Below, piece by piece: positions 4,292 through 4,495 of a DNA stretch of 64,000 bases. The translations under genes were made by a program, and so were the position numbers. The stretch lies in assembly GCA_964291265.2 (NCBI GenBank), contig OZ219747.1:2592001-2656000 (forward strand). Direction: 5' to 3'. The stretch's first letter is position 1, and every line of letters starts with the position of its first letter. This DNA is from Alphaproteobacteria bacterium (GTDB taxonomy: Bacteria; Pseudomonadota; Alphaproteobacteria; SP197). The notes below the pieces were generated by a model. That model searched no databases. It had not been told where the DNA came from and worked only from the letters and a program-made list of their open reading frames with translations.

Positions 4292-4495
4292 CGTCCCTTG
4301 CTCCTCGCCTTATGATGATTCGGTTCAAACCCAGGCATCCATTCAGGACGCAAGGGACGCCAAGGGAGGTTGGCCGACCAAGCTGGCACACGGCTCCGTA
4401 AGGCCAAGGCGAAAACGGTCCGACCAACCTCCGCGGAGATCGTTTGATCCCCGCACCCCGCTCCCCTGTGCTTGATCGCGCAGGGGAGCGGAATC
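4292..4495 (-). ncRNA. Predicted IS110 bridge RNA (5' hairpin, target-binding loop, donor-binding loop); ends approximate
   Basis: Hairpin at 4458-4491. Stem 4365-4373/4424-4432 encloses target-matching guides 4407-4413 and 4383-4391. Stem 4292-4301/4350-4359 encloses donor-matching guides 4335-4342 and 4309-4313. Confidence 0.85.

Follow-up and report, generated by a model that had tools for sequence, protein, structure and literature searches.

The 64,000-nt stretch of alphaproteobacterial DNA analyzed here (contig OZ219747.1, positions 2,592,001 to 2,656,000; hereafter the window) contains an element of the IS110 group in which a hairpin directly precedes the start codon of the recombinase gene. 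An initial annotation had read this hairpin as the donor-binding loop of a bridge RNA, since two of its words match the junction that would arise if the ends of the element were joined in a circle. The question is whether the hairpin (4292..4359, minus strand) is indeed such a loop, and to what kind of site the target-binding loop beside it would direct the element. From sequence comparison and folding, we consider it highly probable that the hairpin, which matches the two ends of its own element, is the donor-binding loop of an IS621-type bridge RNA. In the proposed mechanism, the donor loop would recognize the junction of the predicted excised circle by base pairing, and the neighboring target loop would direct insertion chiefly to the 5' end of a group II intron. 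The donor loop itself is textbook; the unusual part is a target loop whose best match in the genome is only this intron end.

The Element and Its Boundaries

The element occupies positions 2641..4608 of the window on the minus strand, 1,968 bp including both CT cores. It encodes a DEDD recombinase of 315 aa (3344..4291, minus strand) with the two domains that mark the IS110 family, the RuvC-like DEDD domain (PF01548) and the C-terminal serine domain (PF02371). The protein matches the chains of the IS621 structure with an E value of 2.1e-28 and those of ISCro4 with 4.7e-24, and its residues D9, E51, D93, D96, and S232 are invariant across 26 aligned proteins.

The source genome (G000) holds four full copies of the element, each of 1,968 bp, 100% identical to one another and with different outer flanks, together with one truncated left end of 43 bp. 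Each full copy starts with CT-TATATG and ends with ATGGATG-CT. In the window, the left core CT (4608-4607) and the right donor TATATGA lie at 4600..4608, and the left donor ATGGATG with the right core CT (2642-2641) at 2641..2649, both on the minus strand. Introns that lack the element run through a single AG core, both in the genome copies and in the contig ends of sequencing runs X1 and X2; the comparison of filled with empty intron sites thus shows an insertion around a 2-nt core that is repeated at both ends, with no further target duplication. The identical copies and the empty sites fix the ends independently of the RNA, so that the junction ATGGATG-CT-TATATG predicted by the initial annotation is correct as a reconstruction. 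The boundaries it had proposed are upheld by the same evidence and by the relatives, in which the same donor halves are found between different flanks.

The junction as DNA, as part of an element, was absent from G000 and from the relatives' loci. A joint of right end to left end was found neither among the ends listed from Logan contigs of runs X1-X4 nor among the loose ends listed for X1, X2, X3, and X5; since contigs drop rare forms and can show presence only, these negatives do not speak against a circle. Eleven matches to the junction word in viral contigs had flanks unlike the element ends and were put down to chance.

At 317 bp the left end is shorter than the right end, which measures 701 bp and contains an ORF and repeats; in the IS110 group the left end is typically, though not always, the longer one. 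The ORF (96 aa, 3024..3314, minus strand) is followed by imperfect repeats at ~2780-3035, in which Tandem Repeats Finder detected no array. It has tblastn matches in 41 of 88 loci, with 80-93% identity in intact relatives. It has no match in Pfam, and the ESM Atlas returned unnamed clusters only, with a recognition value under the tool's threshold. The same ORF is also carried by an IS21-like element present in ~30 copies in G000. A 7-nt sub-terminal match lies at unequal distances from the two ends (12-18 on the left, 21-27 on the right) and could be due to chance.

The right part of a second identical copy opens the window (1..1459, plus strand). This copy interrupts another multi-copy repeat, which is not an intron, and with the element removed from the genome the 32-nt empty site is present 16 times. 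In addition, a 57-bp piece resembling the left end is found at 1592-1648 and at 13424-13480, in variants with A and with G at donor position 11. These pieces sit inside a repeat of ~390 bp with ~15 copies, the same repeat that was the target of the fourth copy of the element.

Structure of the Probable Donor-Binding Loop

The minus strand reads ATGGATGC at 4342-4335 and ATAAG at 4313-4309, so that both donor words of the initial annotation, and the stem around them, are where it had placed them. A perfect 10-bp inverted repeat (4292-4301/4350-4359) abuts the ATG at 4291. This repeat stands as described; the stem in the folding model is longer, with 14 bp and one bulged G. The 68-nt stretch folds at -30 kcal/mol (z -3.71), and 2 of 200 shuffles were equally stable. 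In the minimum-energy fold the two donor guides are paired to one another, which we take to be an artefact of a calculation that includes neither DNA nor protein.

The left donor guide AUGGAUGC (4335..4342, minus strand) equals the left donor plus the first core base and has 8 nt, as in IS621. The right donor guide consists of AUAAG (4313-4309) and a predicted extension UCAU (4318-4315), separated by a one-base bulge (4309..4318 in all, minus strand). The extended guide UCAU-(C bulge)-AUAAG, which the first reading of the sequence had overlooked, could pair with donor positions 8-16. Overlooked as well was a predicted handshake guide GC (4307..4308, minus strand), which complements target positions 7 and 6 and directly follows the right guide, as in IS621.

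Folding and pair counts in 17 relatives place both loops upstream of the coding sequence, the target loop before the donor loop, and folding predicts two further hairpins 5' of the target loop (4433..4494, minus strand). The bridge RNA region has no match in Rfam. A promoter scan of the linear element returned no sigma-70 site. In the circle, a spacing of 17 bp would separate a candidate -35 hexamer (2656..2661, minus strand) from TATGAC at 4604-4599 as a candidate -10 element; the putative promoter TTGCCG-17 bp-TATGAC, a poor match to the consensus, would form only there.

Covariation of Guide and Donor in Relatives

The comparison drew on 54 loci from GTDB contigs, 50 of them from one genome (OZ219790/OZ219791) and mostly decayed, on 5 metagenome loci, and on genomes of the same genus. 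From 73 donor-loop rows, the 51 with a recognizable left end were kept and the 22 without one dropped; the rows are related copies, many decayed and possibly chimeric. Distant homologues at 37-47% identity (L057, L058, L072-L074, L076, L078, L087, L088), which have no recognizable ends, were left out. The fifty decayed copies of OZ219790/OZ219791 (L003, L005-L054) have many small internal deletions in both RNA and gene, and a small set of multi-copy targets recurs among several of them.

At donor position 11, the donor base and the guide base that faces it form 29 A:U and 21 G:C pairs, with a single mismatch in 51 rows; at position 12 there are 35 T:A pairs, 15 T:G wobbles, and again 1 mismatch (the mismatching rows at positions 11 and 12 are L047 and L044). 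A tree of 41 distinct sequences, built from the coding region and right end, requires three or more changes of state at position 11 on its well-supported branches, a count that chimeric copies could have inflated. Only this donor position switches cleanly. The right-guide extension is complementary to the donor in 48 of the 51 rows; its bases are invariant and may be kept as a short sub-terminal repeat, and so the extension stays a prediction. Of 66 rows compared at the left donor, 45 match the guide exactly, 18 are decayed rows in which the guide itself is damaged, and in 3 position 7 of the donor has changed while the guide has not; IS621 tolerates a mismatch at this position, according to the available part of PMC11208160. 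Across 17 relatives, 11 of the 14 pairs of the donor outer stem never vary and none changes on both sides; the target-loop stem has three pairs with changes on both sides in 17 sequences. Both the left guide and the outer stem are nearly invariant, and neither therefore lends covariation support. Among 36 distinct site-guide rows, 33 have a first donor-loop handshake base complementary to target position 7, for the most part in a single state, and the target-loop handshake complements donor position 7 in 35 of 36 if G:U is counted, with little variation.

The donor-loop call is supported by evidence beyond that of the initial annotation: by the identical copies and the empty sites, by a donor shared with the relatives, and by a guide-donor pair whose bases switch in concert. 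Two other accounts of the matches have to be weighed against it. That they are a chance similarity is next to inconceivable, and we regard it as refuted. The 5-nt word alone did turn up in 1,049 of 20,000 dinucleotide shuffles of the left end, and the 8-mer in 208, but the two together, in order and within 40 nt, appeared in none; the ordered pair occurs four times genome-wide, which is the number of full copies, and the covariation in relatives speaks against chance as well. The matches might otherwise be a remnant or an internal duplication of the ends, in a loop that no longer guides recombination. Such an account would accommodate the fact that neither circle nor RNA has been detected directly and that decayed relatives retain the donor words too. 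We hold it to be very improbable, since four copies at separate sites are 100% identical and have kept the ORF intact, and in view of the covariation at position 11, and a geometry that agrees with the IS621 structure.

A Possible Brake on Recombinase Translation

A donor-binding loop in this position may have a further role. A Shine-Dalgarno-like GAGGAG (4301..4306, minus strand), 9 nt before the ATG, lies in the 3' arm of the hairpin, and in the folding model both this motif and the spacer down to 4293 are paired (unpaired probability at most 0.12). The proposal of the initial annotation that this arm may repress translation of the recombinase is weakly supported by such modeling. In its fuller form, which is compatible with the donor-loop reading, the hairpin would hide the ribosome-binding site on a read-through transcript, and bound recombinase would lock the loop and thereby limit its own synthesis. 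The arrangement is kept in nearly all relatives, the copy in the window has an extra U-A pair that is missing in 11 of 16 aligned rows, and 3'-extended IS621 bridge RNAs still function in vitro (available part of PMC13626964). Opening the start region would cost 9-16 kcal/mol depending on the folding window; nevertheless, the top value of 16.3 is reached by 7.2% of 250 background starts (crude starts drawn from 522, with a median opening cost of 9.5 kcal/mol), and the intact relatives, at 8-13 kcal/mol, are near that median. Moreover, the stem is required for guiding anyway, so its conservation says nothing about regulation. On balance we are inclined to doubt the brake, while keeping it in play.

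The left end of IS621 measures 191 bp and its bridge RNA ~177 nt, numbers that suggest the same abutment of RNA and start codon in that element. Self-repression of a recombinase by its donor loop was not found in the literature searched, including the available portions of PMC13626964 and PMC11187229.

The Predicted Target Loop and the Intron Site

The predicted target-binding loop (4365..4432, minus strand) has its left guide at 4414-4407, its right guide at 4390-4383, and its handshake bases at 4382-4381. Together the guides specify TTTCGC-CT-GGCACA, and 13 of the 14 guide bases match the 5' end of the group II intron in which the element sits. The 13-nt word TTCGC-CT-GGCACA occurs 30 times in the element-free genome, always at a group II intron 5' end and nowhere else; 29 of these sites pass the intron pattern and the last visibly deviates from the intron start by a single base. 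Of the four full copies, three lie at such a 5' end, between intron bases 9 and 10, two of them in full-length introns within IS66 and one in a short intron type. Outside introns there are one full copy and the truncated one; the fourth full copy lies in a repeat present 16 times, where the 12-nt core match contains a single mismatch. The insertion site tops a weak 5-bp hairpin of about -5 kcal/mol. Guides also fit their own flanks in the relatives, with 290 of 360 matches against a permuted mean of 169.7 and none of 20,000 permutations as high, in a test on 36 rows with 21 guide types in which the rows are not independent.

In the window, the first 9 nt of the host intron, GTGTGCCAG (where AG is the core), lie at 2634..2642 on the plus strand, a placement supported by an empty exon junction that occurs 16 times and by the empty introns. 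The rest of the intron (4609..6518, plus strand) contains a reverse transcriptase ORF (4860-6446) and is itself within an IS66 transposase gene; RF02005 at 4634-4858 and the domains RVT_1, GIIM, and DDE_Tnp_IS66 support this assignment. The nesting is thus IS66 (1806-2633 and 6519-7487), then intron, then IS110. Nearby are an 899-aa transposase (PF21804; 7732-10431) with several HTH repeats and another IS66 (11194-12846). Elsewhere in the genome (contig C2), ~15 ORF-less derivatives of the group II intron, of ~655 nt, have their own exon context, for example at 2670787-2671435. At the same position of a related intron 5' end there is a 13-bp remnant of a left end of the G variant (L109, G000:C2:3954237-3954256), which suggests an earlier insertion by a relative.

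Is Intron Targeting Recurrent?

A survey of 23 distinct left-end sites with 11 guide types, or 21 sites and 10 types when G000 is left out, placed 4 of the 21 sites, and 4 of the 10 types, in group II introns. In G404, two guide types are found in introns, one in 2 of its 3 copies, with different exons, and the other in 1 of 5. One guide type of G409 is in an intron at what we take to be the start of domain V, and one of G405 is in an intron upstream of an RT gene, with a poor guide match. Intron-like DNA makes up 0.96% of G000. The 4 of 21 sites correspond to a P of 0.0007 if introns are given a 2% share, 0.019 at 5%, and 0.15 at 10%, with the proviso that the detection sees only introns similar to the host intron of the window. 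Two arrangements seen during this survey deserve mention. A single group II intron in G404 contains two different IS110 relatives, each with its own guide (L122, G404:C1:1142000-1150500), and in G409 the nesting is reversed, with a group II intron apparently inside the recombinase gene of an IS110 relative (L102 / L130, G409:C5 ~693500-696600).

These data make recurrent intron targeting in this IS110 lineage suggestive. We give about even chances to the contrary view that the targeting is incidental, the guide having matched a harmless multi-copy word, copies elsewhere having been purged, and two of the three intron copies perhaps going back to one event through gene conversion or co-mobilization. 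Indeed, the two IS66-borne introns are identical, the right guide of this element is absent from the relatives in 32 genomes of the family, this junction is absent from 22 genomes of the genus, none of the 50 decayed copies in OZ219790/OZ219791 (21 distinct right flanks) is in an intron, and 4 of 21 would be unremarkable if introns made up 10% of the DNA that tolerates insertion. What weighs on the other side is the fit of 13 of the 14 guide bases to a word confined to intron 5' ends, a third copy in a different, short intron type, IS66 hosts with 131 differences over 1,000 ungapped positions outside the intron, and the situation in G404, where a relative occupies one and the same site in 2 of the 3 intron matches, within different exons.

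Both ends of the element also contain DnaA-box-like 9-mers, at 4572-4564, 4544-4536, and 2707-2699; in the circle their distances from the core would be +36, +64, and -65. Among 27 distinct left ends, 24 have box 1 and 16 have box 2, often as TTATCCACA or its complement, a word that occurs only twice in the whole of G000. The two boxes of the left end are inverted and could form an RNA stem instead of DnaA sites. The literature search found no publication on such words at element ends.

A more far-reaching scenario can be drawn, although we rate it as unlikely. In it, the lineage would time and again redirect its target loop to conserved non-coding sequences of group II introns (in this element the 5' end; in G404, G405, and G409 three further non-coding positions and the start of domain V) and would thus be an RNA-guided parasite of retroelements. 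Inserted at the 5' site, the element occupies a hairpin loop on a short stem, and the intron may for this reason remain able to splice and to take the element along. Activity might be gated at two levels, by recombinase holding the donor loop closed across the ribosome-binding site of its own gene and by DnaA of the host at the conserved boxes that flank the circle junction.

A bridge RNA aimed at a group II intron is not described in the literature searched, within the available portions of PMC11208160, PMC11208158, PMC13626964, PMC11187229, 10.1101/2025.05.14.653916, 10.64898/2026.08.14.744561, PMC6542083, PMC11376236, PMC6053426, PMC9229058, 10.64898/2026.03.19.712850, and 10.64898/2026.10.21.760802; the guide tables of PMC11208160 and of bioRxiv 10.64898/2026.10.21.760802 may already contain this family together with its targets. 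The targets already known for the IS110 family, in the parts of the literature available, are REP repeats, attC sites, and transposon ends. The added value of the present locus lies in its intron-specific target loop, the possible recurrence of this specificity, and the conserved DnaA-box-like words at both ends. Were intron targeting general, it would amount to an RNA-guided conflict, or a hitch-hiking, between a recombinase element and a retroelement. As a natural orthologue with clear-cut ends and natural guide variants, 21 types of target guide combined with a donor that hardly changes, the element is also of use for deriving rules of guide design and for testing a longer right donor guide.

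Comparison with Known Systems

The element very likely carries a further, ordinary example of the known IS621-type bridge RNA (Durrant 2024, PMC11208160; Hiraizumi 2024, PMC11208158), with the same layout down to the handshake bases. IS621 has an 8-nt left donor guide (A123-C130), a discontinuous right guide of nine RNA bases over seven DNA bases, a G161:T12 pair, and handshake bases after its right guides (PMC11208158, in the portion available). The present element shares with it a recombinase with DEDD and serine domains, a CT core, an RNA in the left end with the target loop before the donor loop, an 8-nt left donor guide ending on the core C, the handshake bases, and a right donor guide that is discontinuous and in some members forms a G:T wobble at position 12. 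Alike, too, are a short 3-bp repeat around the donor (CAT/ATG here) and a multi-copy target able to form a hairpin. The two differ in their donor and target words, in the right guide, for which the best fit here has as many as 9 pairs and a bulge of 1 nt, and in the left end of 317 bp as opposed to 191 bp. Here the right end of 701 bp carries a small ORF and repeats, DnaA-box-like words lie at both ends, and the target is a group II intron, whereas that of IS621 is REP. Neither longer guides nor additional genes are rare in the family: 19% of 32,190 bridge RNAs exceed that of IS621 (bioRxiv 10.64898/2026.10.21.760802), and cargo-bearing IS110 elements are common (10.64898/2026.08.14.744561), as the available parts of these two sources report.

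Other relatives offer parallels for the kind of target. According to the accessible parts of PMC11187229 and PMC9229058, IS4321/IS5075 of the IS1111 group, which insert in Tn21 inverted repeats, and the attC-targeting IS1111 elements likewise have as their fixed target a conserved site of another mobile element. IS1111 elements, however, have sub-terminal repeats of 7-17 bp and their RNA in the right end, whereas here both loops lie in the left end, before the coding sequence, and it is a retroelement that serves as host. ISPpu10, as far as the available portion of bioRxiv 10.64898/2026.03.19.712850 describes it, resembles our element in inserting into multiple copies of one conserved stem-loop sequence; its target, however, is intergenic, with a GC-rich stem-loop beside the site, whereas here the core tops its hairpin.
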